The notes beneath the pieces were generated by a model, which searched no databases, was not told the origin of the DNA, and was given only the letters and a program-made list of their open reading frames with translations. Positions 2,530-34,385 of a stretch of 64,000 nucleotides of DNA are shown piece after piece; the first letter of the stretch is position 1, and each line of letters begins with the position of its first letter. The DNA is taken from the IMG/VR virus record IMGVR_UViG_3300021373_002523, positions 87,784-151,783 of that record; one strand, written 5' to 3'. Source of the stretch: a virus. The position numbers and the translations under genes were made by a program.

Positions 2530-3005
2530 TAGAATAATTTTGAATCTTCTGTTAGTAACATTACTTTACAGTTTCTTTCTTTTGCCATTTTATTTAAAGC
2601 ATTAGTTTTACATAAATTTCTAATATACGATTCATATGCATATTTAAAATTTTTCATAGCCTTTGCAGTTTTTCTTTTAGGTTCCTTAGGTTTGGTTAAT
2701 TGAGCCTTAGGTTTAATTTCAACTACATATTCTTGTGTCTCGTCTCCCTTTTTCATCTTAAAGAAAAAGTCAGGATAATACTTATGAAACCTTTTATCCA
2801 ATAAATTAAAGTAAGGTATAGAAAAAGGTTCAGATATCCAATAAATGACATCTTCATTATGATCACACCAATGACAAAACTTTCTCTCCCAACTGCTTCT
2901 ATAAATTATAGGGCCTTCTCCTCTGTATTTTTGAGGAAATTTAGGTTTGTAATATCCTTGCTTAAATCCAGATTTTACAGTTGGCTTTACTTTCTTTATA
3001 CTCAT
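2529..3005 (-). CDS. gp4: Head completion nuclease (T4 gp4-like, TnsA-type PD-(D/E)xK fold)
   Basis: YKPKFPQKYRG...IYRSSWERKFCHWCD...SEP...HKYYPDF...VEIKP motifs. Confidence 0.9.
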   Translation of the reverse strand: MSIKKVKPTVKSGFKQGYYKPKFPQKYRGEGPIIYRSSWERKFCHWCDHNEDVIYWISEPFSIPYFNLLDKRFHKYYPDFFFKMKKGDETQEYVVEIKPKAQLTKPKEPKRKTAKAMKNFKYAYESYIRNLCKTNALNKMAKERNCKVMLLTEDSKLF

Positions 3006-3013
3006 TTAACATT

Positions 3014-3379
3014 TTATATTGTATAAATCCCTTCACTATCAGAGCTACCGTTTATAGAAACTGTGCCATGATATTTCTTAGGGTGTAATTTATTCCATCC
3101 TTTTGCAAATCCTCTTTTAGCTATTTCAGTAAAATAAGCAAATGCATTAGTACTTTTTTCTGGATTAAAATTTCTCCAATATCTATAAAGATCCATATAA
3201 GCATAAGCAATACAATCTTGTCTATCTTCTGGATTTCTATATGTTAATTTTCTTGAACACTTATCAGCTAATAGCATCAAAAATTCTAACGCCTTTGGTG
3301 TTAATTCTCCTTGTTCTTTAGATATAATAATCTGTTCTAGAAGATCTCTATTATTTAAATAATTTCTCTTTCTTGCCAT
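3014..3379 (-). CDS. gp55: Late-transcription sigma factor (T4 gp55-like)
   Basis: NYLNNRDLL...NFNPEKSTNAFAYFTEIA, the gp55 signature. Confidence 0.88.
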   Translation of the reverse strand: MARKRNYLNNRDLLEQIIISKEQGELTPKALEFLMLLADKCSRKLTYRNPEDRQDCIAYAYMDLYRYWRNFNPEKSTNAFAYFTEIAKRGFAKGWNKLHPKKYHGTVSINGSSDSEGIYTI

Positions 3380-14645: not shown

Positions 14646-15770
14646 TTAAAAAAGACTAGTCGTATAAATGAGGTTTCGGTTAAATGCCTTAAAGCCCATT
14701 GCAGTAACTACACGATTTATAGGATCAAGTATAGTTTTTTCAAACTGTCTATCATGATCAATCTCTGGTGCAAATTCATAAGGATAATCACCAGGCGCAA
14801 ATGCAAATACATCACAAGATTTATCTTTTGAGAAATACATTTTACACTTTTCTCCATTTCCTAGCGGTTGATATTTACCTTTAGATGAAGAATTGTTTAA
14901 TAAGTAATTATGATAACCTGCAGATCTAACGCCGATTGGACATCTTGATGCAAATTCAAATTGTTCATAATCGTTTACAATATACTTTTGATAATTATTT
15001 ACTTTTCTAGAAAAACAAATTTGATCTACATTTGCTAATTTAAATTGCCTTTTTATATCTTTAAGAAGAGCAGCAAATTCTTTCATATCTAATTTATCAA
15101 CTGAAAAAATATATGTTAGCAGATCCTTAAGTTTTTCTCTAGCAAATATTGGGGTTGATGATTGAATAATTTCAAAACCTTTTGAACTAATTTTAGAAAG
15201 ATCTTCATAATGAATGTCAGGATCCTTCCAAACAATATTTTGCATATACTTTTTCTTTGCCAACCATATTGCATTTTTGGCAATACTTTCTAATTCGAAA
15301 GATAAAAAGTTTTCTGCATTGTTATCATCAGCATATTTTTGAAGTATTTTTTCTAAATAACCATTAACCCTAACTTTATATAATTTAAGAATGAATTCTT
15401 TTTCATCACCTTCCCAACCTTCACTCTTTTTAATTACTTCATCAAATTTTACATATACTGAATCTGTATCAATATAAATACCTACAGGATTTTCAATTCT
15501 ACCAGTTACAGTAATTCCCATTTCTTTATGAGCTGCGATATCTTTATGCCAATATTGTGTAAAGTATTTATTAAGTAATTCTTCAGTATAAAGAATTGCA
15601 TCTTTACCTTGTAATGTAATCGTTTCTGCAATGTCTACATTAAAGAAATAGAAATAAGGATTACCAAATGCTCCATAAATAGAGTTAAGCATTAATTTAA
15701 CTGCTTGCTCATAATTATAAAATTTACTAGCTTCTTTCTTTATTTTTTGTAATTCAGTCAGTTCAGTCAT
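14646..15770 (-). CDS. gp43B: Family B DNA polymerase, C-terminal subunit (gp43B: motifs B and C, thumb)
   Basis: KLMLNSIYGAFGN (motif B), YIDTDSVY (motif C), AKKKY, KGFEIIQSSTP. Lacks the exonuclease domain and motif A. Confidence 0.92.
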   Translation of the reverse strand: MTELTELQKIKKEASKFYNYEQAVKLMLNSIYGAFGNPYFYFFNVDIAETITLQGKDAILYTEELLNKYFTQYWHKDIAAHKEMGITVTGRIENPVGIYIDTDSVYVKFDEVIKKSEGWEGDEKEFILKLYKVRVNGYLEKILQKYADDNNAENFLSFELESIAKNAIWLAKKKYMQNIVWKDPDIHYEDLSKISSKGFEIIQSSTPIFAREKLKDLLTYIFSVDKLDMKEFAALLKDIKRQFKLANVDQICFSRKVNNYQKYIVNDYEQFEFASRCPIGVRSAGYHNYLLNNSSSKGKYQPLGNGEKCKMYFSKDKSCDVFAFAPGDYPYEFAPEIDHDRQFEKTILDPINRVVTAMGFKAFNRNLIYTTSLF

Positions 15771-16886: not shown

Positions 16887-16912
16887 TTATATGCATTAAT
16901 CTTAAATAGTTT
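16887..16912 (-). promoter_or_regulatory. Putative middle promoter (AAAC-N16-ATATAA) upstream of the clamp gene
   Basis: Copy of the recurrent motif. Confidence 0.6.
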
Positions 16913-18174
16913 TAAAAAGTACTATTAACTTTATACTTCTTTTTTGGTGCAGCACCTAATTCTTCTGTTACTAAAATTTTCTGTTTAGTATTATCTTGCT
17001 TCATAAAGGTAAAGTTTGTCATTTTAGATTCACCTCTACAGAATTTTTTAACTTCATCTGCCATATCCATTGCAGTAGTCACAGGTACATTTTGAGCAAT
17101 ATGATTTACTTGACCTGAATGTTCTATACCAAAATCTAAAGGTAATCCCATTAAATGTAGCATCTCTCTAATGTTTAAATACCTATCCTCTACTGGGTGA
17201 ACTCCATTAAACATATTTCTACCAATAAGAGCAGAAAAGCTTTCATTAAAGAAGTGTGGTGATGCATCCCAATAACCCAAACCTTGGCTAGTCTTATACT
17301 GCTGATGCTCTAGCATATCAGAAAAAGTTTTTGTAGACTTTTTATTTGAAAAACCTTGCTTAGGATAATTTTTATTGAGCCATTGAATACATTCATCAAT
17401 TAAATCATTTGCTTCTAAGTATTGTGCAATTGTACCCTTCTTAAATTTAGCAGCAAATTCTTTATGACTTAATCCTTCCTTTTGTAAAACAAATTCATAA
17501 GGCCTATAATGTTCTGTAACTTTACCATCTACCATAAACATATCTTGGTGAGTGGCGTCTTTTGGAATTTCATTAAGATAATCAATAAGATTTTTCTTCT
17601 CTCTAAATTTCCAATTTAACAAAGGTACCGTTGGTGTATTCCAAAAGAAGTAAAAAGTTCTTATTCTTCTTTGAGGTATTCCATGCAATTCAGTATTAGT
17701 TTTGATTAAAGAAAAACTATAACCATATTTACGACCTATTTCTTTAAGTCTTTCAACAACACCTTCTCCCATTTTTGTAAATAAGCCTGGTGCATTTTCA
17801 CCCCAAAGAACTTTAGGTTTTACATTTTCTAAAATATACTCTGATGAATCATACATCCATTTGTTTTGTGTAGCACCTGAACCACGAGATGCCGCTGTAC
17901 CTCTCGCAGAATTTAACTGGGATAAGCCTGCACAAGGGCATACTGAATTTACATAATCTACCTCTTCAAATGTTTGATTAGGAATTTCTAGATCTTCATG
18001 ATCCAATCTATACATTGGTACATCTGGCCAATATTTTTCAATATGACTTTCATTAGCAGCAAATGCTTCATAACTTAAATGAAAAGCTGGATCTACACCT
18101 GCTGATTTTTTACATCCTATGGCACTACCTCCTATAAGAGGGATTATAGTACCCCATTTTAATTCTTTACTCAT
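16912..18174 (-). CDS. DNA cytosine-C5 methyltransferase-fold enzyme with atypical SAM-binding motifs
   Basis: Motif IV CPCAGLS, VI GENAPGL, VIII HGIPQRRIRTF and IX RYLNIREMLHLMGLP are intact. Motif I is IIPLIGG (not FxGxGG) and motif X is AQNVPV (not GNxV). Confidence 0.85.
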   Translation of the reverse strand: MSKELKWGTIIPLIGGSAIGCKKSAGVDPAFHLSYEAFAANESHIEKYWPDVPMYRLDHEDLEIPNQTFEEVDYVNSVCPCAGLSQLNSARGTAASRGSGATQNKWMYDSSEYILENVKPKVLWGENAPGLFTKMGEGVVERLKEIGRKYGYSFSLIKTNTELHGIPQRRIRTFYFFWNTPTVPLLNWKFREKKNLIDYLNEIPKDATHQDMFMVDGKVTEHYRPYEFVLQKEGLSHKEFAAKFKKGTIAQYLEANDLIDECIQWLNKNYPKQGFSNKKSTKTFSDMLEHQQYKTSQGLGYWDASPHFFNESFSALIGRNMFNGVHPVEDRYLNIREMLHLMGLPLDFGIEHSGQVNHIAQNVPVTTAMDMADEVKKFCRGESKMTNFTFMKQDNTKQKILVTEELGAAPKKKYKVNSTF

Positions 18175-19193
18175 ATTTTTACTTTTTCAATTTCCAAATC
18201 TTCCATAAAAGTTAAAGGATCTATTGTACCTTCTTTAATCTCTTCTTCTAAATAAACAATAGTTTCTTTAATAGTATCTTTTATATCTTTTTTAGGCTCC
18301 CATCCCATTGATTTAGCTTTAGATATATCACCTCTAATATTTAATGCTTCACCTGCAATTGGATCATAATGATCAAAAGGTACTTCACCTACTTCCATTA
18401 TTTCCCCAATCATATTTTTAAGTTCCATTAAATTAGTCATTTTACCAGTTCCTAAATTAAATGTTTGGTTAGCTGTATTTTCATTTTCCATACAAAGAAT
18501 ATGAAATGCATTTACATCTGCAACATCTATATAATCTCTTGCTTTCATATAATCCCCAAACACAATAGGATTATGGCCACCTTTAATTCTTAAAATAAAT
18601 CCTGCAAATACTGGAGGAATAGTTCTGTTATAATCTTGCAAAGGGCCTGCAACATTAAAGTATCTTAATGCTGTATAATTTAATCCTTTAGTTCTATGAT
18701 AAGATTCAGCCAATAAAGCAAGGCATGCCTTTGTTGTAGAATAAATTGTGGTAGGGTCTGATTGTGTTTCATTAAATCCTGCATCTGGCATTTCACAATT
18801 TTCATACACAGCAGAAGTTTCACTAAAGATAATTCTTTTTACCCCAGCCTTTACACAACCGTTCATTACATTAATACTCCCTAAGATATTGTTATCTACT
18901 GCTTCATAAGGATCTTCATTACAGTCATAGATAGAAACAAGACCAGCAAAATGATAAACATAATCAGGTTTAAATTCCTCTATAATGTTTTCCACATATT
19001 GATTTCTAATATCTACCTTATGAAAATTTTCAATTTGATCATGGACTTTAGGAATATAAGTTCCGTGTTCCATATTATCTACAACAGCAATGCATTTAGG
19101 ATTATGCCCTCTGTTTAATAAGTCGTTAATAAAATTTGTACCAACGAACCCAGCTCCACCGGTAACTAGGATTTTAGTGTTTGAATTATACAT
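18171..19193 (-). CDS. NAD-dependent NDP-sugar epimerase/dehydratase (extended SDR)
   Basis: LVTGGAGFVG, HFAG, YSTTK (YxxxK), LRYFNVAGP, RDYIDVADV, FNLGTG. Confidence 0.92.
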   Translation of the reverse strand: MYNSNTKILVTGGAGFVGTNFINDLLNRGHNPKCIAVVDNMEHGTYIPKVHDQIENFHKVDIRNQYVENIIEEFKPDYVYHFAGLVSIYDCNEDPYEAVDNNILGSINVMNGCVKAGVKRIIFSETSAVYENCEMPDAGFNETQSDPTTIYSTTKACLALLAESYHRTKGLNYTALRYFNVAGPLQDYNRTIPPVFAGFILRIKGGHNPIVFGDYMKARDYIDVADVNAFHILCMENENTANQTFNLGTGKMTNLMELKNMIGEIMEVGEVPFDHYDPIAGEALNIRGDISKAKSMGWEPKKDIKDTIKETIVYLEEEIKEGTIDPLTFMEDLEIEKVKI

Positions 19194-20448
19194 TGATTTC
19201 AGTTTTAGTTGTTACTCTTTTGTAAGCTTCCCATATCTTATTATCTACATGTTCTCCAGTATAATAAGAATCTTTTAAATACTTTTCTTGTAAATTATAG
19301 AAAAGCTTTTTATAATGTTCAGGATTATCATTTAAAAATTGTACTTTCTTTTTTAAATCCTCTGGTGATTTACATCTGATGAAGTGACCTTCAGGGAAGA
19401 CATTAAAGTCGGTATCATAAGATGGATGCAAGAATGGTATAATACCATAGTGCAACATTTCTGCATACTTAGAGGTTACCATTCCTTCTTTAATAGGTAC
19501 ACAGAATGTATATTTAGTTGCAAGCAGTTCATCAGTCATTGTCTCAATTCTCTTTTCTCCTTTAAACCATTTAGGATATTCTTTCTTTAGGTCATCATCC
19601 CACTTACCATAAATATCAGTTTCAATATCATTCTTTACAATATAATCTCTTACAGGATCCCAGCGGTCCATTCCACCTGAACCCTTTCCTTGGTTTTGTA
19701 ACATCATAAATGAATTAGTCTTTTTCATTTCAAATAATTCATCAGTGTCATATCTCTTTTTATCTAAAAGGAATACAGTTTCAATTCCTGAATATTCATA
19801 AGTAGATTCAATTGTATCAATATCTCTTAAAGGTGGATTACAAAAGAACTCTTCCGTTTTTGTAAATGTATTTTGTGCTAAGTAATATGTTGGCCTATTA
19901 TTATCATTCCAATCTTTACATGCTAAAATGTATCGGTTATCAACAAGTAAACCAACAATAGGTACTTTCTTTTCCAATTCATTCATTGCTTTAATTATAG
20001 GAGCTGCATAGTACTTAAAAAAGTCTAAAGATTTAACTCTCCCGGTTCCATCTACTTTGTTAATATAATCTGGTATGTTAACTGTACTTGATGGCCCGGT
20101 ATAGAAAAAGATAAAATCTAAATCTAAATCTTTTATAATTTGAGCAGCTTCATCAGCTGATTTCCTATCAGTCATTGTAGAGTGGAATTCTTTTACATTT
20201 GATGGTGCAGCAGATTCTGTTTCAACCGGAGGACCGAATAAAGATTGAACTGCTGGTTTTTCTTTTGCTCTAACTCTACCTAAATCATTTGGGCTTAATA
20301 GCCAATATTCAATATTAGGATTTCTTTTTGCAATTGAATTAATTAATTGCTTAGGTTCACAATCTCCACCTATTGCTCCCCAACTGTTTTCATTAAACTT
20401 AATCGCTTTACCAAGTTTAAAGAAACCTACTTTTTTTACATTTTCCAT
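19186..20448 (-). CDS. GT-B glycosyltransferase, probably DNA-base modifying (phage BGT-like clade)
   Basis: N-terminal KVGFFKLGKAIKF...WGAIGGDCEP; C-terminal DIYGKW...KYTFCVP...VTSKYAEMLHYGIIPFLHPSYD resembles the BGT-like TxR/K-x-E block. Confidence 0.65.
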   Translation of the reverse strand: MENVKKVGFFKLGKAIKFNENSWGAIGGDCEPKQLINSIAKRNPNIEYWLLSPNDLGRVRAKEKPAVQSLFGPPVETESAAPSNVKEFHSTMTDRKSADEAAQIIKDLDLDFIFFYTGPSSTVNIPDYINKVDGTGRVKSLDFFKYYAAPIIKAMNELEKKVPIVGLLVDNRYILACKDWNDNNRPTYYLAQNTFTKTEEFFCNPPLRDIDTIESTYEYSGIETVFLLDKKRYDTDELFEMKKTNSFMMLQNQGKGSGGMDRWDPVRDYIVKNDIETDIYGKWDDDLKKEYPKWFKGEKRIETMTDELLATKYTFCVPIKEGMVTSKYAEMLHYGIIPFLHPSYDTDFNVFPEGHFIRCKSPEDLKKKVQFLNDNPEHYKKLFYNLQEKYLKDSYYTGEHVDNKIWEAYKRVTTKTEINV

Positions 20449-20449
20449 T

Positions 20450-21154
20450 TTAACAATTTTGAATTAAATCTTCTATTACTTCTTTATCATTTTCATATGT
20501 TAAATCATACCAACATATGTTCAGTTCTTCGAACTTTAAATTATCCATTGAGTTTATTAGATGGGTAATTTCATATTCATTTCTATTTGACATTTTAATA
20601 CTATCAAGATTATCAAATGCTTCTTTAGAAAATATCATATAACCACAGAAATATCTACCTGAAACAATGCCGTGAGGTTTCTCAATGACAACATTTTCTA
20701 ATATAGATGCAAGCTGTAAATTTCTTGCTCTTGTATCATAATCTTTATAAGTAACAACAGTTGTACTTGGATCATGATATTCTAATCCTATATTTCCTTG
20801 ATAATAATTATCTCCAAACAGACATAAGAAACCTTCATTAAATTTACCTGCCCAAACTTTTATGGCAGCACCTGGGCCATATTCATCATCCTTTTGAAAT
20901 TCATAAAATATATTGATATCTTTTTTATACTTATTAAGTTTTTCAATAATAGGATGAGATAGTTTTACACTATCTTTAAAAAAGAAGTCAGCTTTACTGA
21001 TTGTTACATAACAATCTTCTATTCCATTTTCAATACAAAATTCAATACAGTACTCTACAGTTGACTTACCTAAAATAGGATCAACTAATTTATTTTTACC
21101 GTACCTAGTGGAACGGCCTGCTGCTAATATAATTGCTTTACTTATTCTTTTCAT
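20450..21154 (-). CDS. Sugar-1-phosphate nucleotidyltransferase (RmlA/HddC-like)
   Basis: AIILAAGRSTR, LFGDN, IEKP, SNRNEYEIT (RmlA RGELEIT-like). Confidence 0.88.
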   Translation of the reverse strand: MKRISKAIILAAGRSTRYGKNKLVDPILGKSTVEYCIEFCIENGIEDCYVTISKADFFFKDSVKLSHPIIEKLNKYKKDINIFYEFQKDDEYGPGAAIKVWAGKFNEGFLCLFGDNYYQGNIGLEYHDPSTTVVTYKDYDTRARNLQLASILENVVIEKPHGIVSGRYFCGYMIFSKEAFDNLDSIKMSNRNEYEITHLINSMDNLKFEELNICWYDLTYENDKEVIEDLIQNC

Positions 21155-21897
21155 TTAGTATATTTTATTTCTAATTCATCAAACAGCTCATGGCCTTTTT
21201 TAAGGAATGAACCTGCTAATTCATATCTTTCATTTAATTCAAAGAAAGGTACTGCTCCTAATAAGTGAACAGCTAAAAAGAATTTAAGTTGATATTCATC
21301 ACACCATTCATACATTACTTTTTCTGCTTCTTTACAAAACTTACTGTACTTTTCATTTGGATTATTGTATATATGGGACTCATATTCCATGACAAATGAT
21401 TGCATAAGTTTTCCATAATCATAATAGTTCTGTTCTTCAGTTCCTCTTGGATCAATAAATAGAAAATCTTTATCATGTAAAATGTTACTTACTGTTAAAT
21501 CACCATGAACAAATCCCCAAGCAGATACTGCATCAAATTTACCTTCATAAGTATAACCTGTTCTTAATTGAAGTTTATCAAAATAATCTTGAGTTTTTAC
21601 ATCAGATCCTATATTATCAAATTTACCTATAATTGAAATTAAAGATTCTAATTGGCCTAATGAAGTATTCATAGGTTGTGATAAAATTTTATCATACCAA
21701 GTAGAATATCTTTTCATTTCATAACTTGTTTCTGATAGAGGCTTGACATCAATAAAATTAGGATGATCACAGCACATAAGAAAATCCATTTGCTGTTTAA
21801 ATTTTTCTGGATAATGCCCAGCCTCTTTAATTACTTTATTACCTTGGAGAAAAACTTTATCTCCGCTATTCCCTACTAAAATTTTACTATTATGCAT
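21151..21897 (-). CDS. APH/choline-kinase-fold phosphotransferase (probable sugar kinase)
   Basis: GNSG glycine loop, HGDLTVSNI catalytic loop, FIDPRG, YDYGKLMQS. Confidence 0.8.
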   Translation of the reverse strand: MHNSKILVGNSGDKVFLQGNKVIKEAGHYPEKFKQQMDFLMCCDHPNFIDVKPLSETSYEMKRYSTWYDKILSQPMNTSLGQLESLISIIGKFDNIGSDVKTQDYFDKLQLRTGYTYEGKFDAVSAWGFVHGDLTVSNILHDKDFLFIDPRGTEEQNYYDYGKLMQSFVMEYESHIYNNPNEKYSKFCKEAEKVMYEWCDEYQLKFFLAVHLLGAVPFFELNERYELAGSFLKKGHELFDELEIKYTK

Positions 21898-22427
21898 TTT
21901 ATTCCTAGTTTACGTGCAAAGGTTGAATCCACATCAGAATCTCCAACCATTAAGAAGTCTTCTTTATTATATTGCGGAAATTTTTCCATTATTAAATTTC
22001 CCATATCTGGTGATGGTTTCTTATTTGGTACATCTTCTCTTGTATATATGTAGTCAAATAAATTAGGATCTATTTGATGGTAACTCATAATTCTATCAAC
22101 ATTTTCTCGCGATGAATTAGATGCTACAACTAAATTTTTAAATACTTTACTTTTACACATATACAAAAGTAATTCATTTACCTTTGTTTTATGTAGGTTT
22201 TTAGAAAATATTTCTTTTTTATATTTTTGGGCTAATTTAGATTCTTTATTAGTTAATTGATATTTTTCTAATAAAACATCCATACCATAATTAATATCTG
22301 CCATAATAGCAGAAAGTGGTATTTCTATGTTTAAGACTTTCTCTAATGCCTTTCTCCATGAATCAGCATGAATCTCAATAGTTTTAACTAAAGTATCATC
22401 AAAGTCTAACATTAAACATTTTTCCAT
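21876..22427 (-). CDS. HAD-superfamily phosphatase (beta-PGM/Gph-like)
   Basis: LDFDDTLV, ASNS, KPSPD, MVGDSDVD. Confidence 0.9.
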   Translation of the reverse strand: MEKCLMLDFDDTLVKTIEIHADSWRKALEKVLNIEIPLSAIMADINYGMDVLLEKYQLTNKESKLAQKYKKEIFSKNLHKTKVNELLLYMCKSKVFKNLVVASNSSRENVDRIMSYHQIDPNLFDYIYTREDVPNKKPSPDMGNLIMEKFPQYNKEDFLMVGDSDVDSTFARKLGIKCIIVKF

Positions 22428-22445
22428 ATAAATCCTAATTTATTA

Positions 22446-22471
22446 TTATATGGCAAAATAAATAAATGTTT
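22446..22471 (-). promoter_or_regulatory. Putative middle promoter (AAAC-N16-ATATAA) heading the six-gene modification operon
   Basis: Copy of the recurrent motif. Confidence 0.62.
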
Positions 22472-22549: not shown

Positions 22550-22726
22550 TTATAAACTGTTTTTAGTTTCTTGTACATGTACTCTTACTTCTTGTGCTAA
22601 GTTTTTAACTTCTTGCATAGTTTTACGAATTCTTACGGCTGCTGCCTTATTTCCTTTTACATAAAACTTATCTATGTCTTCAGTACACGCTTCGATTAAC
22701 GCTTTAATTTCTTCAAATTTTTCCAT
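22550..22726 (-). CDS. Histone H1-like (Hc1-family) small DNA-binding protein
   Basis: Not in the ORF track. 58 aa: MEKFEEIKALIEACTEDIDKFYVKGNKAAAVRIRKTMQEVKNLAQEVRVHVQETKNSL; the KF..KGNKAAA.R.RK motif is typical of Hc1. Has its own late-type box and terminator. Confidence 0.85.
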   Translation of the reverse strand: MEKFEEIKALIEACTEDIDKFYVKGNKAAAVRIRKTMQEVKNLAQEVRVHVQETKNSL

Positions 22727-22764: not shown

Positions 22765-23673
22765 CTAGAACTTGCCTTCACGGTTTCTGTAAAAACTTGT
22801 TACTTTAGGAATGTACATATAATTTTTTCCTTTGTCCTTGACATTCATCATGACTCTTTTAAACATATCCCAATCGGCTGGTAATATACCACCTGAATTA
22901 GATGGTGCACCTTTTAGCTTAGGGGCTGTGTTTCTCTGTTGATCTGGATTTCTATATCTTAATTTACCTATTATACTAGGTCTCCAAGATACAGCAGAAT
23001 GAGAAGTATCATTTGCACCATACCCTTTATTATTTAAATCCATATCATATTCTTTTTGTGGTTGCATAAATACCTTCTTTGAAGTATTGAATGCAGTTAC
23101 TTTCTTTTTACTTCTAGTAAAAACAAAACCTAAATCTGGAAATTGAGAATATGCTTTAGCAATAGTCTCTAAATGATTAGGAGCCCATTTATCATCATGG
23201 TCTAATCTAATGATATAATCACAACCATCTTTTTCCGCCATGTTTAATGAATCATTTAATGCAGCACAGCCTGCAGTAAATCTTATTTGTTTAGTAGTCC
23301 ACTTTTTGTTATTTCTTTCACCTGGTGTAGTTCTATTCTTATATTGAATTTGAGCATCAGGAATAATATCTTTAATTACTTTTTTAATTTCATTTTCATC
23401 ACCTTCATATTTGTCAGCGGTCAAATAAATTTTCCAGTTTTTATATTTTTGATTCTTAATAGAATTCAAAGCATCAGCTAAAACCCCAGGAGTAGTCATA
23501 TGTTTTGCTCTTTGCTTATTTGCAGCTCCAGCACTCATATCATGAGTGGCCATGACTATACCGAATTTAATATCATTGTCTATTTTGGAACTTAAATTCT
23601 TTTCTAAAAGAATCTGAAAATTTTCTTCTTCTAAATAAGACTCTAATAATTTAAAATCTTCAAAGGTTATCAT
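22765..23673 (-). CDS. Glycosyltransferase family 2 (GT-A) with an N-terminal capsid-targeting-like leader
   Basis: FGIVMAT...LNSIKNQKYKNWKI...ALNDSL...RLDHDDKW (DxD)...ADWDMFKR. The leader is MITFEDFKLLE. Confidence 0.82.
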   Translation of the reverse strand: MITFEDFKLLESYLEEENFQILLEKNLSSKIDNDIKFGIVMATHDMSAGAANKQRAKHMTTPGVLADALNSIKNQKYKNWKIYLTADKYEGDENEIKKVIKDIIPDAQIQYKNRTTPGERNNKKWTTKQIRFTAGCAALNDSLNMAEKDGCDYIIRLDHDDKWAPNHLETIAKAYSQFPDLGFVFTRSKKKVTAFNTSKKVFMQPQKEYDMDLNNKGYGANDTSHSAVSWRPSIIGKLRYRNPDQQRNTAPKLKGAPSNSGGILPADWDMFKRVMMNVKDKGKNYMYIPKVTSFYRNREGKF

Positions 23674-24785
23674 TTGTTAAAAAATGTTTTTATAGACTTT
23701 ATAATTCTTTCCATATCTTCATCAGTAAGATCAGAACCAGAAGGTAAACAAATACCTTGTAAGAATAATAAAGAACTGTTTCCATTTATATATTTTTTAT
23801 AACCTTGCATAACTGGTTGTTCATGCATTGGCTTCCATATTCTCCTAGCTTCAATATTATCTTTTTCCAAATGAGCAATTAAATCTTCTGGTTTATATTC
23901 ACCTTTCATTATAGCACAGGTTAACCACATATTAGATCTGTCTGTTTCTAACTCTTCCTGAAAACCAAAAAATAAATCACCTAATTCTTTTCTGTAAATC
24001 TGATTAATTTCTCTTGTTCTTTTTATTCTTTCTTCTATAACTTCCATCTGAGCAACTCCGATAGCAGCAAGAACATTACTCATTCTATAATTATATCCTA
24101 TATCAGTATGATGGTAGTATGGCCTGTTATCTTTTGCTTGTGTCGATAAAAATCTCATATAATCAGCTTTCTTTTTATCGTCAGTTACAATTACCCCACC
24201 ACCTGATGTAGATAATAATTTATTTCCATTAAAAGAATAAACACCAATATCGCCAAAGGTTCCTGTGTGCTTATCTTTAAAAGTAGAGCCGAGACTTTCG
24301 GCGGCATCTTCAATAATAGGTATGTCATATTCATCTGATAATTTTTTAATTGCTTCCATGTTACAAGGTACACCGAAAATATGTACAGGAATAATAGCCT
24401 TTGGTTTTTTACCTAAAGCTGTTGAATTGAGTATAGCAGATTCTAATAAAGTTAAATCCATATTCCAACTACCTTCTTCTGAATCTATAAAAATAGGTTC
24501 GGCACCACAATAAATTATAGGATTTGCTGTAGCTGCAAAAGTTAAAGAAGAACATATAACATAGTCATCTTTTTCTACGCCTAATGCCCTAAGAGCTAAA
24601 TGTATACCTGCAGTACAAGAAGTAACTGCTACTGCATACTTCGCTCCAGTATATTCTTTTACAATTTCTTCGAATTTATTAAGATGAGGTCCAATTGGAG
24701 CTATCCAATTATCTTTAAATACATCTTTAATATATTCTAATTCTTTGCCTGACATATGAGGCGGTGATAAGTAAATCTTTTTCAT
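23670..24785 (-). CDS. DegT/DnrJ/EryC1/StrS PLP aminotransferase (PglE-like)
   Basis: IYLSPPHM, IEDAAESLGS, SFNGNKLLSTSGGG, GYNYRMSNVLAAIG, WKPMH, LPSG. Confidence 0.93.
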   Translation of the reverse strand: MKKIYLSPPHMSGKELEYIKDVFKDNWIAPIGPHLNKFEEIVKEYTGAKYAVAVTSCTAGIHLALRALGVEKDDYVICSSLTFAATANPIIYCGAEPIFIDSEEGSWNMDLTLLESAILNSTALGKKPKAIIPVHIFGVPCNMEAIKKLSDEYDIPIIEDAAESLGSTFKDKHTGTFGDIGVYSFNGNKLLSTSGGGVIVTDDKKKADYMRFLSTQAKDNRPYYHHTDIGYNYRMSNVLAAIGVAQMEVIEERIKRTREINQIYRKELGDLFFGFQEELETDRSNMWLTCAIMKGEYKPEDLIAHLEKDNIEARRIWKPMHEQPVMQGYKKYINGNSSLLFLQGICLPSGSDLTDEDMERIIKSIKTFFNK

Positions 24786-24786
24786 A

Positions 24787-25332
24787 TTATTTTATTTTAG
24801 CCGGATTACCATAAGCCGTAATGTTATCAGGCATATTTTTTGTTACTACTGAACCTGCACCTATCATACAGTTTTTTCCAATTTTTATGTAAGGCAAAAT
24901 TACTGCGCCTGCACCAATAAAAGTACCTTCTCCAATTTCAACACCACCACATAAAGTTGCATTAGGGCCGACGAAGGAAAAGTCTCCTAACTTACAATCA
25001 TGATCAATTGATGCTGAGGTATTAATTATACAATGCTTTCCTATCTTAGTACCAACCTGTACTACTGCTCTGTGTAAAATTTGAGTACCTTCCCCAATAT
25101 CACTATCATAAACTAAAGCTGATTCTGCTATAACAATAGCATAACAACCTTCACCTAATTTATTGGCTATTGTTTTTCTTGCTTGATTATTTCCAATGGC
25201 AATAACCCAGCTCCCTCTTGCACTTTTATCGTAATCCTCATCATTCCAAAATTTTATCTGTTTAGGATGTCTATTCCATAAAACAGAATTAACTACTCTT
25301 GCATGGCCACCTTTACCGTAAATGTTAATCAT
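24787..25332 (-). CDS. Hexapeptide-repeat sugar N-acetyltransferase (PglD/NeuD-like)
   Basis: IYGKGGHA, IAIGNN..R, INTSASIDHDC, GAGSVV, GNPAK. The start is probably MINIYG at 25332, overlapping the upstream stop. Confidence 0.9.
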   Translation of the reverse strand: MINIYGKGGHARVVNSVLWNRHPKQIKFWNDEDYDKSARGSWVIAIGNNQARKTIANKLGEGCYAIVIAESALVYDSDIGEGTQILHRAVVQVGTKIGKHCIINTSASIDHDCKLGDFSFVGPNATLCGGVEIGEGTFIGAGAVILPYIKIGKNCMIGAGSVVTKNMPDNITAYGNPAKIK

Positions 25333-26380
25333 TGCTTTCTCTTTTAAATTCTGGAACAATACTTTTCATCAATAGAAGTATTTTGTAAAAATCATTAGAT
25401 CTTATTTTTGATAATTTTTCTATTTTAGGTATTAAAGTTTTAAAATCATAATCTTCATGATTTAACTTCATAATATTATGATCATCAGTAGGTATCATAT
25501 TTTCACCATTACATAATAGCTCTTCATATAATTTTTCACCTGGTCTTAGTCCTATGTATTTAATTTTAGCATCACTATTAAAATACTTAATTAAATTTTT
25601 GGCTAAATCAGTAATACTAACAGGCTCGCCCATATCAAACAAAAACACTTCTCCACCTTTACCTAGTACACCTGCCTGTAATACTAATTGACATGCTTCA
25701 GGTATAGTCATAAAGTATCTAATTACCTCTCTGTGAGTAACGCTCACAGGTCCTCCTCTTTCAATTTGTTTTATAAATGTTGGAATTACTGAACCTTCAG
25801 ATCCTAATACATTACCAAATCTTGTAACTATAAAATTTGTGGCAGATTTTGTTTCTAAAAATTGTGTATATAATTCTGCAATTCTTTTTGTAGCTCCCAT
25901 TATGTTAGTAGGATTAACTGCTTTATCTGTAGAAACCATTACAAATTTTTCAACTTCATTCATATAAGCCGTGTTAGAAACGTTCATGGTTCCTAATACA
26001 TTAGTTTTAATTGCTTCTATAGGATTAGCCTCCATCATTGGTACATGTTTATATGCAGCAGCATGAAAAACAATATTTGGTTTAAAAGAATCAAAAACTT
26101 CTTCTAACCTATACTTATCTCTTACATCACCTATTACATATTTAATATGAGAGTTTGGAAATGATCTACTTATTTCTTGTTCTAAATGAAACATTGAAGC
26201 TTCTGCATTATCAAAGACTGTAACTGAAGATGCACCAAATTTTACAAGCTGCCGTACAATTTCACTACCAATCGAGCCGGCTCCACCAGTAACTAAAATT
26301 CTTTTTCCTTTTATGTATTCTTGGATTTTATTAAGATCAGTAGAAATAGGATCTCTTCCAAGTAATTTATTATAATCCAA
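25325..26380 (-). CDS. UDP-GlcNAc 4,6-dehydratase (PglF/CapD catalytic domain, soluble)
   Basis: LLGRDP, VTGGAGSIGSE, HAAAYKHVP, STDKAVNPTNIMGATK, RFGNVLGSEGSVIP, RYFMTIPEA, GLRPGEKLYEEL. Confidence 0.95.
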   Translation of the reverse strand: MDYNKLLGRDPISTDLNKIQEYIKGKRILVTGGAGSIGSEIVRQLVKFGASSVTVFDNAEASMFHLEQEISRSFPNSHIKYVIGDVRDKYRLEEVFDSFKPNIVFHAAAYKHVPMMEANPIEAIKTNVLGTMNVSNTAYMNEVEKFVMVSTDKAVNPTNIMGATKRIAELYTQFLETKSATNFIVTRFGNVLGSEGSVIPTFIKQIERGGPVSVTHREVIRYFMTIPEACQLVLQAGVLGKGGEVFLFDMGEPVSITDLAKNLIKYFNSDAKIKYIGLRPGEKLYEELLCNGENMIPTDDHNIMKLNHEDYDFKTLIPKIEKLSKIRSNDFYKILLLMKSIVPEFKRESND

Positions 26381-26858
26381 AATCCTTAAACTTTAAAATA
26401 TTATCTTTCTTTTCCAACAAACCTTTCCCAACTAAATTATTAATTACAACTTGCTGCGACTTCATAACTCTTTTCATTGCTTCATCATAATCTAAAAATC
26501 CTGCCCAGTCAACTTCTTCTGTTTGTAATTGCCTTTTAGGTATTACTAAATCCTTCAATCCTATTTGAGAAAGATCAGATATTTGAGCAATATAATAATA
26601 AACAATTTTAGTGTATTTGTACTTTCTGGTTGTTAGTACAAATGTATGCTTATCATTTTTATTAATTAGATTTTTAGGAACCTTTATACCGACTTCTTCT
26701 TTGGTTTCTCTCAATGCAGCTTCAAAATGCGTTTCACCTTTTTCAATTCCACCTTTAGGGATTCCATAAGAACCATACCAGCCTCTATTGGTAGTATGAG
26801 CTAATAAAATTTTATTGTCATATATGATTGCTAATCCAGCTGAAAATTTTGTTTTCAT
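26370..26858 (-). CDS. NUDIX hydrolase
   Basis: Nudix box PKGGIEKGETHFEAALRETKEEVGI. Confidence 0.9.
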   Translation of the reverse strand: MKTKFSAGLAIIYDNKILLAHTTNRGWYGSYGIPKGGIEKGETHFEAALRETKEEVGIKVPKNLINKNDKHTFVLTTRKYKYTKIVYYYIAQISDLSQIGLKDLVIPKRQLQTEEVDWAGFLDYDEAMKRVMKSQQVVINNLVGKGLLEKKDNILKFKDFGL

Positions 26859-27601
26859 ATATTATTTATTTGAGACACTAACCAGTCTAATTCTACCTGG
26901 CTACCTGAGTCTGAAATAGCATTATCAGGATCTGGGTGAGTTTCAATAAATACTCCATCATATTCAAAAATCTTAGCTGCTTTAGCATATTGCTTTGCTA
27001 ATTTACGACTCCCTCCGGTTATACCATCTCCAGCCATTTGAGTAGAATGAGTACAGTCTAAAATAACTTTATCTGCAAACTTTTTCATTACATCAACTCC
27101 TCTAAAATCTACAATAAGCCTATCATAACCAAATTGTGATCCTCTTTCAGTTACCCATACTTCACAGTTAGGATCCACTTCTTTTATTTTTGTAACAGCA
27201 TGCACCATAGCCTCAGCCGATAACCATTGTCCTTTTTTAATATTAATCACATTAAAGTTTTTTGCGCATTCAACTAGAAGATCAGTTTGCCTACATAAGA
27301 AGGCTGGTATCTGAATAACATCCACTACCTCAGATAGCGGTAATGCCTGAGAAGGTTCATGAATATCAGTTATGATTTTAATATGAGGATAGAAATGTTT
27401 AACTGTTCTCATGATCTCCATCCCTTCTTTTAAACCGGGACCTCTATCAGAATGTATAGAAGTTCTATTTGCCTTATCAAAAGATCCTTTTAAATACCAA
27501 TCCTTTGTTCCCATCCAACCGTCTAAGGTTTTAGCAACCTCTAAAAAATTTTCCTCATTCTCAATACTACAAGGACCTAATATGTAAGTATATTTTTCCA
27601 T
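26855..27601 (-). CDS. kdsA: KDO 8-phosphate synthase (metal-dependent type)
   Basis: GPCSIE, KGSFDKANRTS, TDIHE, QIPAFLCRQTDL, NIKKGQ, ERG, DCTHS, ETHPDP...SD. Confidence 0.93.
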   Translation of the reverse strand: MEKYTYILGPCSIENEENFLEVAKTLDGWMGTKDWYLKGSFDKANRTSIHSDRGPGLKEGMEIMRTVKHFYPHIKIITDIHEPSQALPLSEVVDVIQIPAFLCRQTDLLVECAKNFNVINIKKGQWLSAEAMVHAVTKIKEVDPNCEVWVTERGSQFGYDRLIVDFRGVDVMKKFADKVILDCTHSTQMAGDGITGGSRKLAKQYAKAAKIFEYDGVFIETHPDPDNAISDSGSQVELDWLVSQINNI

Positions 27602-30494: not shown

Positions 30495-31910
30495 TTAATC
30501 ATTGTCTTGTTTTTTTAACTCCTGCTCTAAATCATAAGCTTCTTGTTGTAGCCTAAATGATTCTTTCTTATATTCTCTTCTTTGGCCATACAGCCTACTT
30601 AACACATCTTTTAAAATAGATCTCTCTGTACTATAAACGGCACCAGTTACAGAAACAATTCTATCTTCTCCTACTTCCCTATCTCTAATTTCTGGTTTTA
30701 CTTTTCTAATAAAACTTTCAGGTGAAACATTTAACTGCCTCATAATAGAAGGATACAGAGAAGCAAAATCAAAAGCAGCTACAGCATTATGCATTCCTGT
30801 TTTAGGTTCTTTTACAAAGGCTCCTTCAAACTGCTGCCTTTTAGTTGGGGGAGCTTTAGGGTCTTTAGCCATTACTAAATTTCTAGTTAAAAATTCTCTA
30901 GCTAATAATGCTTCTGTAATTGCTACTGGTGATGCAGCTTTAAAAATACTAATCTGAGTCATATGAGCAATAGTTAATGCAATTTCCATTGTCTTAATCT
31001 TTTCATGGATTAAATAAACAAGAGCGGTATCAACTGCATTATAGAAAATGTACTTAGGATAATCTTTTTCATACATATCTTGTATTGTACCTTCATATTT
31101 AATTTTACGGATTCCTACAACAGCTTCACCTACTGTATCTAATTTAAAATCTTCTTTAATATCTACAGTCCTATCCCACTTTGCATAAATATCTAAATAA
31201 TCCATTACTCCTACATGGCAGGGGAATTCATTTTTGCCAAAAGTCCTACCAATAGGAGAAGCAATAGAAGGATCAATTCCTAATTTCTTGCAACGGTTTA
31301 CAATATATTGCCAGTCAAATTGTACAAAGTTCCAACCTGTCATCATAGAAAACTTTTTAACAAAAGTATCCATGAATGTATATAGCATATCATACTCATT
31401 ATCAAAACATTTAAAGATAAAAGAAAATTCTTCACCTATATCTTTAAAATGTTCGTCTATTTGCTTTTGTATTTTAGACTGTATAGGTTTATCTAAATTT
31501 TTAGTAGCTAGCACTACACATTGTTTTTCTGGTGTTACTATACAAATTGCAGTCACCGGGTTCGGTGCTTTACTTGGTTCAGGAAATGAATCAGTAACCT
31601 CAACCTCAATATCTACAAAATATGTTTTAGGAAAATGATAACCAAATATAAGCTCTCTATCAGAAAATGATAGTTGATCCATATATTCTATAATTCTATA
31701 TTTGTTTAAGTACCTTGATTTTGCTTTCTTTACAGAACGCCCATCCCAGTTTTTAATTTTAGGATCTGCTTTAGGATCACCACCATCACAAACTTCCCAG
31801 TTAAACATATCTTCTGGTTGAAGATCATAAGTCTTAAATCTAGTTTTTCCGTCAAGATTAAAATAAGAGACCCATAATTGGCGATCTTCTTGAGTTATGT
31901 CTAATAGCAT
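30495..31910 (-). CDS. gp43A: Family B DNA polymerase, N-terminal subunit (gp43A: 3'-5' exonuclease and motif A)
   Basis: VDIEV (ExoI), TGWNFVQFDWQY (ExoII), YNAVDT (ExoIII), FEGAFVKEP, FDFASLYPSIM (motif A); ends in the fingers helix QRREYKK. Confidence 0.92.
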   Translation of the reverse strand: MLLDITQEDRQLWVSYFNLDGKTRFKTYDLQPEDMFNWEVCDGGDPKADPKIKNWDGRSVKKAKSRYLNKYRIIEYMDQLSFSDRELIFGYHFPKTYFVDIEVEVTDSFPEPSKAPNPVTAICIVTPEKQCVVLATKNLDKPIQSKIQKQIDEHFKDIGEEFSFIFKCFDNEYDMLYTFMDTFVKKFSMMTGWNFVQFDWQYIVNRCKKLGIDPSIASPIGRTFGKNEFPCHVGVMDYLDIYAKWDRTVDIKEDFKLDTVGEAVVGIRKIKYEGTIQDMYEKDYPKYIFYNAVDTALVYLIHEKIKTMEIALTIAHMTQISIFKAASPVAITEALLAREFLTRNLVMAKDPKAPPTKRQQFEGAFVKEPKTGMHNAVAAFDFASLYPSIMRQLNVSPESFIRKVKPEIRDREVGEDRIVSVTGAVYSTERSILKDVLSRLYGQRREYKKESFRLQQEAYDLEQELKKQDND

Positions 31911-32446: not shown

Positions 32447-32473
32447 TTATATAGCTAAAAGTAAAGATTGTTT
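32447..32473 (-). promoter_or_regulatory. Putative middle promoter (AAAC-N17-ATATAA) upstream of the dCTPase/dUTPase gene
   Basis: Copy of the recurrent motif. Confidence 0.62.
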
Positions 32474-33306
32474 TATTTTTCTTTTTGTTGTTTTAGAACT
32501 TCACCTAGCATATCAATACTCCATTTAGGATCAAACCAAAATCGCCTGCCGTTCTTATCTTTTATGTATGCCATGTTCTTATTGTTATAGCACTTAATAA
32601 ATTTTTCAAACTTTTCTTTATCTGATTTCCAAGGATTCTCCCAATCTTTTAATTGGCCTCCACCTAATGAATATGCTTTTCTAGGAATTTCAATACAAAG
32701 CTCTAAAAGCTGTGGGCAATTTTCTATTACTTCTCTGGCATCCATAAAAGGATTTATATGAGGTAGCCTATAAAGTATCTCGGCTCTTAAGTAATTACCA
32801 ATACCGTTAAAGTATTTTTGGTTCATAAGAACTAAATGAATAGGTTGATTAAAAACCTTTTGATCTAAATTTTTAAGAATGTTATATTTAAATTCATCAG
32901 GCTCCATTGTTGGATCTGGTCCCCGATTAGTACCCCAAGTTTCTCCTAACTTCCATTTACCGAATCTTCTTACATCAACAAAAGATAAGGTAGTACCATC
33001 ATGCCTATAAAATTTTAAATGAGCATGCTTCGGTTCTTGCCCAGTGTTAGTTAATTTAAAATGACCACTCATTCCCATAGTCATTTTAAGAGGAACTTTT
33101 TCTCCTTTCTGAGATAACCATAAGATTAATTCCTTTCCTCGACTCTCAGCAGTAATACCAAAGTCACCTTCAAAAGGTAGCTCAATATCCTTTCCTTTAT
33201 GTACTGGATTTTTCTTAATGTTAGTATATCTGATAGAAGGAGTACCACTCCCACTACACTCATTTATATAAGCTGCTGTCAATCTAAGTTCTGCTAATTC
33301 TGGCAT
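32473..33306 (-). CDS. Fpg/Nei DNA glycosylase-AP lyase, NEIL1-like (zincless finger)
   Basis: N-terminal PE, RGKEL, MGMSG, FVDVRRFGKW, NQKYFNGIGNYLRAEILYR, CY...DKNGRRFWF; no CxxC zinc finger. Confidence 0.92.
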   Translation of the reverse strand: MPELAELRLTAAYINECSGSGTPSIRYTNIKKNPVHKGKDIELPFEGDFGITAESRGKELILWLSQKGEKVPLKMTMGMSGHFKLTNTGQEPKHAHLKFYRHDGTTLSFVDVRRFGKWKLGETWGTNRGPDPTMEPDEFKYNILKNLDQKVFNQPIHLVLMNQKYFNGIGNYLRAEILYRLPHINPFMDAREVIENCPQLLELCIEIPRKAYSLGGGQLKDWENPWKSDKEKFEKFIKCYNNKNMAYIKDKNGRRFWFDPKWSIDMLGEVLKQQKEK

Positions 33307-33309
33307 AGT

Positions 33310-33822
33310 TTAATAATTATATCCTTTAATAAAAATGTTAAGGCTTGTCATTTCTTTAGGAGTCCTTTCCCCGCTACGATTTACCTCATCCAATACTTTT
33401 TGTTCTGTTTTTAATATCCAAGCTATTTTAAAGTTATTTACAAGAATAGCATAGATCTTTCTTACTGTTATATCTTCTAAAGCATAAAGCTTTTTTGCAA
33501 TCTGAGAAACTGGTACAATATGCTCTAAATGAAAAACTCCGTCTATCCTACCTACATCACGTAACCCGGCTTTATTTGTTTGCTGTCTCCATGTAACCCA
33601 TTTAAGCCTTTCTTCAGCATCAGGAATTTCTAATCTTTGCGCCTTTTGTAAAGCAGCTCGGGAATACATATAAGGGATTCCTAATTCTTTAGGTGTATTA
33701 CTATAAAACCTGATAAGTCTTGTTACAGTGTACTTTACATCCTTATCATTAGGGTTTTCTTTAATCCATTCTAAAAGAGGTTTTATCGTTTCGGCATATA
33801 ATTGTATTTTCTTTATAATCAT
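33310..33822 (-). CDS. Hypothetical protein, possible HNH/His-Me nuclease-like
   Basis: HLEHIVPVS motif only. Confidence 0.45.
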   Translation of the reverse strand: MIIKKIQLYAETIKPLLEWIKENPNDKDVKYTVTRLIRFYSNTPKELGIPYMYSRAALQKAQRLEIPDAEERLKWVTWRQQTNKAGLRDVGRIDGVFHLEHIVPVSQIAKKLYALEDITVRKIYAILVNNFKIAWILKTEQKVLDEVNRSGERTPKEMTSLNIFIKGYNY

Positions 33823-34385
33823 CCCTTCATAATTTTAAGTGAATTACGAATAGTACCGTTTACTGATTGAACAGTAATACCGAGTTCTTTTGCAATTTCA
33901 GAAGTTTTCATTTCATTACAATCAATACCAAATTTCATTTTGATAATTTCTTGTTGTTTAGGTTTTAGTTTACCCATTAACTTTTCAATTTTAAACTTAA
34001 GATGATCTGAATCATGACGTGATTCAATATGAGATTCATATGTGCCTTGATATGTTGGATCCAATTCAGATACTTTAGGTCCTATATCAGGGATATGAGT
34101 TTTATGAGCAGGTACACGAATAGTCCTACTCTTATTATTTAAGGCTTGGCGAATTGTAGCTTTAATCCATGCTGCTGCATATGAAGAAAATTTAGATCCA
34201 CCGTCTTTTTTCCATTTATCCCTAGCTTTACATAATCCGATTGTACCTTCATGGATTAGATCTTCTAGTGATAGTCCCATTCCTTGGTATTTTTTAGCAA
34301 GGTGTACGACCAATCTCATATTGGATAGCACAGGGTCAGATGAATTAATGTTTTTTTGAATGTCTTTGTACAAAGTAGTGTTCAT
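33819..34385 (-). CDS. Phage sigma-70 family RNA polymerase sigma factor (regions 2 and 4)
   Basis: NMRLVVHLAKKYQGMGLSLEDLIHEGTIGL...KFSSYAAAWIK...RTIRVPAH; region 4 LKPKQQEIIKMKFGI...TSEIAKELGIT. Confidence 0.92.
   Translation of the reverse strand: MNTTLYKDIQKNINSSDPVLSNMRLVVHLAKKYQGMGLSLEDLIHEGTIGLCKARDKWKKDGGSKFSSYAAAWIKATIRQALNNKSRTIRVPAHKTHIPDIGPKVSELDPTYQGTYESHIESRHDSDHLKFKIEKLMGKLKPKQQEIIKMKFGIDCNEMKTSEIAKELGITVQSVNGTIRNSLKIMKG

Follow-up and report, generated by a model that had tools for sequence, protein, structure and literature searches.

The DNA analyzed here is a stretch of 64,000 nucleotides of the IMG/VR virus record IMGVR_UViG_3300021373_002523 (positions 87,784 to 151,783), hereafter called the window, and its main feature is a six-gene cluster that may serve cytosine hypermodification. 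The whole stretch is part of the genome of a large T4-like phage, with approximately 30% G + C and nearly all genes on the minus strand, for which the uncultured 462-kb phage LR756500 is the nearest sequenced phage by the C part of the DNA polymerase (59% identity). It harbors a T4-type portal, a gp15-like protein, gp46/47-like nuclease subunits, a DnaB-type helicase, UvsX and a ribonucleotide reductase. The family-B DNA polymerase (PolB) is present in two pieces, and the 14.7 kb between them contain the ribonucleotide reductase, a run of sugar genes, the six-gene cluster and a clamp-like protein of 249 aa (Table 1).

The six genes code, in order, for a HAD-superfamily phosphatase, an APH-fold kinase, a sugar-1-phosphate nucleotidyltransferase, a glycosyltransferase (GT), a short-chain dehydrogenase/reductase (SDR) and a C5-cytosine methyltransferase (MTase)-fold protein, with successive genes overlapping by 22 and 4 nt at the first two junctions, separated by 1 nt at the third and overlapping by 8 and 4 nt at the last two. 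An initial reading of the sequence alone (the sequence-only reading) had described these open reading frames (ORFs) as overlapping or abutting, and located between two polymerase genes beside the clamp. This description holds, as all six ORFs are found on the minus strand, the flanking polymerase genes are the N and C parts of PolB, and the adjoining 249-aa protein resembles PCNA/gp45. The latter has no sequence match in Pfam, PHROG or PDB, and was recognized from its language-model (Atlas) features, scoring 0.95 to gp45-slide_C clusters, and from its predicted structure, with template modeling (TM) scores of 0.76-0.78 to PCNA clusters.

Table 1. Positions of the cluster and of other features in the window
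Feature	Position	Strand	Basis or remark
TnsA-like endonuclease	2529-3005	-	
gp55-like sigma factor	3014-3379		
PolB, polymerase C part	14646-15770	-	
Sliding clamp (gp45/PCNA-like), 249 aa	16115-16864	-	Immediately downstream of the MTase gene
C5-cytosine-MTase-fold protein (P0001)	16912-18174	-	PF00145, 70.9 bits
Extended-SDR nucleoside diphosphate (NDP)-sugar epimerase/dehydratase	18171-19193	-	Pfam Epimerase 3.7e-47; phrog_540 5.8e-64
GT-B glycosyltransferase resembling T4 beta-glucosyltransferase	19186-20448	-	AF2 model and Foldseek
Sugar-1-phosphate nucleotidyltransferase (RmlA/GlmU-N type)	20450-21154	-	Pfam NTP_transf_3 1e-6 and NTP_transferase 4.8e-4 (weak)
APH-fold (aminoglycoside/choline-kinase-like) sugar kinase	21151-21897	-	APH-domain alignment, phrog_21938, phrog_4098
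HAD-superfamily phosphatase	21876-22427	-	Pfam HAD_2 1.5e-25
Sigma-70-like site	22474-22445		
Hc1 histone-H1-like DNA-binding protein, 58 aa (chlamydial Hc1 homologue)	22550-22726	-	Pfam Hc1 2.8e-23
Variable sugar cassette (GT2, DegT aminotransferase, PglD-like acetyltransferase, PseB/PglF-like 4,6-dehydratase, NUDIX, KdsA-like aldolase)	22765-27601	-	Pfam
PolB, exonuclease/N part	30495-31910	-	
Fpg/Nei-family DNA glycosylase	32473-33306	-	Fapy_DNA_glyco, H2TH and Neil1 DNA-binding domains
Two-domain sigma-70-family factor	33819-34385	-	
Collagen Gly-X-Y repeat protein, 4251 aa	38822-51577	-	Pfam Collagen 1e-131 and 1e-149 (two ends)

Glycosyltransferase and sugar-supply genes

The GT was modeled with AF2 together with 14 homologues (pLDDT 79.6), and a Foldseek search of this model against PDB returned T4 beta-glucosyltransferase (BGT) at ranks 1-3 (1nzd, 1qkj and 1bgt, E 6e-11 to 8e-9, TM by target 0.60-0.68). 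By sequence the protein does not belong to PF09198 and Pfam gives only a weak Glyco_trans_1_2 match (8.8e-4), so that the earlier label "BGT-like" is justified at the level of the fold and not at that of the Pfam family; PF09198 clusters are among its nearest Atlas feature clusters. Homologues of this GT adjoin hydroxymethylases resembling thymidylate synthase (TS) in three unrelated phage groups, namely Pseudoalteromonas phage XG4, Enterococcus phage Planchet and marine contigs. Consecutive genes of XG4 code for the TS-like protein, a nucleotidyltransferase-kinase fusion, the GT homologue (28% identity to that of the window, E 4e-45), another GT and the MTase. In Planchet, where no MTase is present, the genes that precede the GT are those of a nucleotide kinase, of a "thymidylate synthase/pyrimidine hydroxymethylase" and of a dUTPase. 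Co-occurrence of the GT with a hydroxymethylpyrimidine synthase is also seen in L048, L076 and other loci, and in the window's own lineage the hydroxymethylase lies on the same contig, approximately 47 kb away. From the predicted fold we propose that the GT acts on DNA as a 5-hydroxymethylcytosine (hmC) glycosyltransferase.

The Pfam and NCBIfam profiles recognize the HAD, nucleotidyltransferase, SDR and C5-MTase families, in line with the earlier assignments. The APH-like kinase matches no Pfam or NCBIfam family, and its assignment is upheld by the catalytic segment HGDLTVSN...IDPRG (HGDxxxxN...D(P)RG core), which aligns (E 5e-7) with the Pfam-assigned APH domain of a fused nucleotidyltransferase-kinase (L070:1832-3409). 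Such fusions are found in XG4, L048, L070 and L074, whereas the window has separate genes. Kinase, phosphatase and nucleotidyltransferase are thus co-encoded, as in AfhE/AfhF-like NDP-sugar modules. By analogy with AfhF/DLP3 gp81 and with the metavirome contig 53, we propose that the HAD phosphatase would strip the distal phosphate from a sugar bisphosphate (PMC13326640; 10.1101/2023.12.21.572611). All NCBIfam matches are below the equivalog cut-offs, be it for the phosphatase (HAD-IIIA, PGP and beta-PGM families), the nucleotidyltransferase (Arch_glmU 1.6e-17, rmlA_long 6.4e-15) or the SDR (GalE 8.7e-41, dTDP-glucose dehydratase 1.3e-39).

Upstream of the six genes lies a further sugar cassette, of which the DegT, PglD and PseB-type genes resemble a bacillosamine-type set. 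We regard it as variable because this aminotransferase, acetyltransferase and dehydratase are missing in some close relatives (L008, L009, L011, L014 and L052) in which the six genes are retained, and it may extend a DNA glycan or have some other target.

Phages and giant viruses also glycosylate structural proteins, and the sugar genes and the GT might decorate a virion protein, such as the 4251-aa collagen-like one, or the host envelope, in which case the MTase would be an ordinary anti-restriction methylase that happens to be encoded close by. The additional GT genes, the bacillosamine-like cassette and the giant collagen-repeat protein of the window speak for such a target. We consider it very improbable, as the best structural matches of the GT are a DNA enzyme, its linkage with the MTase and a TS-like gene recurs in unrelated phage lineages with different replicases, and the cluster is part of a replication module next to the clamp. 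The collagen-repeat protein is encoded by a single ORF, which accounts for a block of 50% G + C in a genome of 30% G + C.

The C5-methyltransferase-fold protein

The last gene of the cluster codes for a member of PF00145, well above the gathering cut-off (22 bits), with a class-I MTase fold and a target-recognition domain, although the match begins only at residue 57. Its AF2 model (pLDDT 89.4) retrieves MET1, HaeIII, HhaI and DNMT1 in Foldseek at E ~1e-13. It shares with M.HhaI, M.HaeIII and Dcm the fold and the catalytic motifs IV (PC, in CPCAGLS), VI (ENV-type, here ENA, in GENAPGL) and VIII (QxRxR, in PQRRIRTFY), whereas motifs I and X differ and the N-terminal 45 residues cannot be aligned with these enzymes by sequence. 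The FxGxG of motif I and the GN of motif X, which bind S-adenosylmethionine (SAM), are replaced by IIPLIGG and IAQNVP. All these motifs are invariant or nearly so among 30 family members, down to 46% identity, and the invariant residues are I11, P12, G15, C79, P80, C81, E126, Q168, R170, R172, Q361, V363 and P364. In the HMMER alignment Q361 falls on Asn304 of M.HhaI and A360 on Gly303. The sequence-only reading had noted both the retention of the cytosine-activating residues and the alteration of motifs I and X, and was right on both.

The cofactor region is more difficult to read. Residues 1-80 have no PDB sequence match (phmmer), the first 45 residues match neither solved MTases by sequence nor E. 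coli Dcm by profile, only motifs IV-VIII align with Dcm in hhalign, and the family profile aligns with solved MTases from motif III/IV on. Because mapping of motifs I-III by sequence failed, statements on the N-terminal cofactor site are based on predicted secondary structure. In the model, the IPLIG loop and a helix would come after strand 1 (residues 7-10), the end of strand 2 (31-34) would fall on a position that varies between S, N, D and E across the family, and strand 3 (54-56) would precede a mostly conserved Asp58. The donor-binding half thus looks truly atypical both in the alignments and in the model, while the adenine-binding Asp may survive.

A precedent for a non-methyl donor linked to the Asn304 position is CmoX, the DNA cytosine C5-carboxymethyltransferase of Synechococcus phage S-B43 (PDB 8yf3), in which an Arg at the position of M.HhaI Asn304 binds the carboxymethyl group of Cx-SAM (PMC12783734). 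Both are phage C5-MTase-fold enzymes with this residue replaced. However, CmoX combines Arg350 and an SPPC motif with canonical contacts to adenine and ribose (Phe25, Glu47, Phe48 and Asp69) and has a CmoA partner, whereas the window protein has Gln361, CPCAG, no motif I/II recognizable by sequence and no CmoA-like neighbor; the family profile matches 8yf3 weakly (E 1e-4). A CmoX-type route was rejected, since there is no Arg at the Asn304 position and no CmoA-like family among the neighbors.

Source of the modified base and neighborhoods of the MTase family

No TS-like gene was identified in the window, neither in scans of its approximately 55 proteins nor by tblastn with TS-like queries, and no TET/JBP homologue is found among these proteins. 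The sequence-only reading had made the same observation and deduced that, for want of a hydroxymethylase, the MTase must itself provide the acceptor for the GT. This deduction is not borne out by the relatives of the phage, and the gene is most simply missing because the window, which ends only 17 kb downstream of the MTase gene, does not reach it. Many near relatives in IMG/VR share this gene order and have MTases 68-94% identical. Three long contigs of the window's clade each harbor two PF00303 genes, one for ThyA (E 1e-90) and a divergent copy (E 1e-26), and the relatives with this second, gp42-like gene on their contig have MTases 79-85% identical to that of the window. Its best solved matches are the CMP hydroxymethylase MilA and the T4 dCMP hydroxymethylase (E 2e-25 to 5e-24, as compared with 3e-13 for thymidylate synthase), and it is 32% identical to T4 gp42. 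Its neighbors are an ATP-grasp gene and genes resembling those of guanylate kinase and thymidylate kinase. In one close relative an ATP-grasp ligase gene (L087:2365-3582) lies directly downstream of the gp42-like gene (L087:1465-2349), and its product might attach another group to the base or to the sugar.

In TS homologues, N177D confers dCMP specificity, L143D/E marks hydroxymethyl products and D169N the 5-hydroxy-dCMP synthases (PMC13326640, drawing on Liu and Santi 1992). L143D, D169 and N177D are present in all 22 complete aligned TS-like partners except that of cyanophage S-TIM5, and this 5-hydroxymethyl-dCMP synthase signature (L143D/E and N177D, with D169 kept) is found in the relatives' contigs and in 12 other lineages. 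A 5-hydroxy-dCMP synthase of the RB69 type was rejected on the grounds of the retained D169. A TET route was likewise rejected, since a search of five related contigs, among them one that is 97% complete, gave no hit to Tet_JBP (PF12851) at E <= 1.

To place the MTase family in context, ORFs within 9 kb of the MTase gene were clustered for 79 loci, which were grouped into 15 lineages by MTase identity. The most widely shared neighbor is the TS-like gene, within this distance in 11 of the 15 lineages. In the window's main clade it lies elsewhere on the contig, and the clade is counted among the 11 through L047/L048 only. Searching whole contigs adds lineages 2 and 4, for a total of 13, and the two remaining lineages are known only from fragments estimated to be 11-15% complete. 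An SDR adjoins the MTase in eight lineages. Among relatives of the window that are T4-like, the BGT-like GT and the MTase invariably occupy the place upstream of the clamp, and the sugar genes between the two differ. In phages with Pol III alpha the order is Pol III alpha, TS-like gene, DUF6378, dUTPase-like gene, variable sugar genes, a DNA-acting enzyme, MTase, SDR and thymidine kinase. The enzyme directly before the MTase is an AGT-like DNA alpha-glucosyltransferase in one locus (L069:8601-9998, 3.9e-11), a 5-hmdU-DNA-kinase-like protein in another (L059:8550-9995, HMUDK_hel, 9.8e-8) and a different GT-B enzyme in other Pol III-type loci; L059 also carries genes for an inositol-1-phosphate-synthase-like protein and an FkbM methyltransferase. 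Two tandem paralogues of the atypical MTase are present in each of two loci (L070:6843-9253 and L074:9974-12410). In S-TIM5, which has no GT, a member of this MTase family adjoins a TS homologue that carries N177D and lacks L143D. Homologues of approximately 650 aa (P0043 and P0084), 52-55% identical and with the same motifs, carry C-terminal zinc fingers and occur as several transcripts in the transcriptome of the copepod Neocalanus flemingeri, where they may stem from the animal, a symbiont or a virus, and one metagenomic homologue carries a CXXC domain. Proteins like the zinc-finger homologues are common on short marine contigs. The MTase family sits in hmC operons across at least 13 lineages with different replicases.

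The presence of a gp42-like gene in the relatives and in 13 of the 15 lineages suggests that the acceptor is most likely hmC made before replication, and not a handle installed by the MTase. The original proposal was the converse, namely that the MTase-fold enzyme adds a non-methyl group (hydroxymethyl, or one from a SAM analogue) after replication, which the GT then glycosylates. Motifs I and X that are non-canonical yet invariant, Q361 in place of the CmoX Arg that binds the carboxymethyl of Cx-SAM (PMC12783734), the many lineages in which the MTase lies directly beside a GT or kinase acting on DNA and the lack of TET/JBP in the five related contigs are all in its favor. We nevertheless judge it improbable, as the accompanying synthase means that the acceptor is already supplied. 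Moreover, the GT family does without an MTase neighbor in Planchet, no CmoA-like or other donor-making gene recurs among the MTase neighbors, the same motifs are found in the zinc-finger homologues of the copepod transcriptome, and one metagenomic homologue carries a CXXC domain.

Alternatively, the MTase-fold enzyme might act on hmC in DNA, or on its phosphorylated or glycosylated form, either building a further adduct or trimming an existing one. The Cys would attack C6, the 5-CH2-O-R group would leave and another nucleophile would capture the exocyclic methylene; C5-MTases reportedly perform such an exchange on hmC in vitro without SAM, according to work of the Klimasauskas laboratory. The donor site is rebuilt and yet the residues of covalent catalysis (PC, the E of ENA and RxR) do not vary, and the gene lies in hmC operons directly after the AGT-like GT, the 5-hmdU-DNA-kinase-like protein or the BGT-like GT. 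Against this, S-TIM5 harbors the family together with a TS homologue lacking the hydroxymethylase signature and with no GT, and no candidate gene for supplying the nucleophile is conserved with the MTase. Furthermore, the family has mostly retained the Asp that follows strand 3 and that in canonical enzymes binds adenine N6, suggesting that an adenosyl cofactor is still bound. We therefore regard this chemistry as unlikely, if somewhat less so than a handle made by the MTase.

The favored role, as far as the sequences indicate, is that the MTase acts on cytosines that escaped replacement. In S-TIM5 a post-replicative enzyme would in this case yield a base of the kind that the nucleotide route also gives, and the tandem paralogues fit sequence-specific enzymes for which coverage matters. 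The homologues with zinc fingers and the one with a CXXC domain are likewise taken to favor this role.

A proposed route to glycosylated hydroxymethylcytosine and its significance

We propose, with a probability of roughly 0.55, that this large T4-like phage replaces its cytosine before replication in the manner of T4, and that the window carries the half of the system which decorates the DNA. In a first step, a gp42-like TS homologue, present in the relatives' contigs and presumed for the phage of the window, would make 5-hydroxymethyl-dCMP, which the neighboring nucleotide kinases would convert to the triphosphate and the split PolB would incorporate as hmC. Judging from published analogues and from the families to which the proteins were assigned, the APH-like kinase would then phosphorylate C1 of a host phosphosugar, the HAD phosphatase remove the distal phosphate, the nucleotidyltransferase form the NDP-sugar and the SDR epimerize or dehydrate it. 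From its fold and gene context, the BGT-like GT-B enzyme would in turn move the sugar onto the hydroxyl of hmC in DNA. The fourth and least certain step is that of the MTase-fold protein, a conserved core partner of hmC operons and not the source of the acceptor, which would most likely modify, probably by methylation, the C5 of cytosines that escaped replacement, such that every cytosine would be C5-substituted. From the sequence-only reading this retains the cytosine hypermodification cluster, the sugar route by which kinase, phosphatase, nucleotidyltransferase and epimerase feed the BGT-like GT, and the atypical MTase cofactor region, and abandons the acceptor made by the MTase.

The sugar half is of a known kind, by analogy with described systems whose logic the phosphatase, kinase, nucleotidyltransferase, SDR and GT fit. 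In RB69, DLP3 and HY126, a phosphatase and a bifunctional protein that is both nucleotidyltransferase and APH-like kinase produce UDP-arabinofuranose, with which modified cytosine in DNA is glycosylated (PMC13326640). Metavirome contig 53 encodes an HAD/APH enzyme, a cytidylyltransferase and a BGT-like GT-B that in E. coli attached heptose to 5hmC (10.1101/2023.12.21.572611). The present system resembles the pre-replicative T-even/RB69/DLP3 type (PMC13326640) in its T4-like phage background, its dCMP-specific TS homologue (in the relatives' contigs) with nucleotide kinases, its GT-B DNA glycosyltransferase, and its phage-made NDP-sugar obtained through APH-like kinase, HAD phosphatase and nucleotidyltransferase. 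It differs in that the TS homologue keeps D169 (hydroxymethyl and not 5-hydroxy type), that there is an added SDR epimerase and no arabinose-5-phosphate isomerase, and that a C5-MTase-fold gene, lacking in those systems, is a constant member. A C5-MTase gene adjoining a DNA GT is also a feature of the post-replicative C5-MT/5mYOX(TET)/GT clusters (PMC8256090; 10.1101/2023.12.21.572611), and contig 53 shares in addition the HAD/APH/nucleotidyltransferase sugar supply and the BGT-like GT-B fold. In contrast to these clusters, the related contigs carry a TS-type hydroxymethylase in place of TET/JBP, and IIPLIGG and AQN replace the canonical motifs I and X of the MTase.

Several points weigh against our reading. 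The hydroxymethylase lies outside the window, and its presence is deduced from relatives with 79-85% MTase identity. A complete replacement of cytosine would leave a C5 methylase without substrate. Plain methylation also sits uneasily with a cofactor site that is rebuilt, where neither the Phe nor the first Gly of motif I is present, no conserved acid follows strand 2 and the equivalent of Asn304, the position of the donor-binding Arg of CmoX, is Gln; judged by its sequence, this region is unlike that of any characterized SAM-dependent C5-MTase. With every NCBIfam match under its equivalog cut-off, the sugar may be a heptose, a hexose or a pentose, and the literature searched shows no experimental characterization of any member of the MTase or GT family. 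Because the cofactor site is rebuilt and the Asn304 position changed, we keep as a tentative, less probable reading that the IIPLIGG/AQN clade makes more than 5-methylcytosine (5mC), through a non-SAM donor or by action on hmC, giving an undescribed cytosine derivative.

Some other features surround the cluster. At its head lies the gene of the Hc1-like protein, which close relatives and the distant T4-like L050, L055 and L060 also have upstream of the GT; its membership of the modification system is uncertain. The sequence-only reading had placed the six genes behind one replication-class promoter. A sigma-70-like site does lie before the first gene, and sites of this kind are no commoner in the window, with 38 found, than in shuffled sequence, where 47 +/- 8 are expected. 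The C part of PolB ends in ...YTTSLF and, in most lineages, the MTase in ...KVNSTF, ...SII or ...LF, while the BGT-like GT ends in ...LF in four lineages and not in the window. Similar ...S/K-x-L/T/I-F/I tails are found in L050, L055, L058, L060, L070, L074-L076 and L078, and from these sequences the tails of the three proteins may be a shared clamp-binding peptide; a complex prediction of the clamp with MTase residues 376-420 (one run) gave a score of 0.08, which speaks neither for nor against such binding. Elsewhere, this phage with predicted modified cytosine harbors an Fpg/Nei-family DNA glycosylase, a TnsA-like endonuclease gene lies among the structural genes, and a full two-domain sigma-70-family factor is present besides the gp55-like one.

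Glycosylated hmC is a classic phage shield against restriction and CRISPR nucleases. The locus would show an abundant aquatic T4-like lineage making its own sugar donor for such a shield, with a cassette that differs between close relatives. Its one truly unexplained part is the MTase relative, which is conserved, keeps its catalytic residues and sits in hmC operons, though C5 should there be occupied. Its role would reveal either a back-up that completes cytosine replacement or a new reaction for the C5-MTase fold, and either outcome would matter to phage biology and to epigenomic enzyme tools. If the enzyme makes a product other than 5mC, an undescribed cytosine derivative would be present in a widespread group of aquatic hmC phages.

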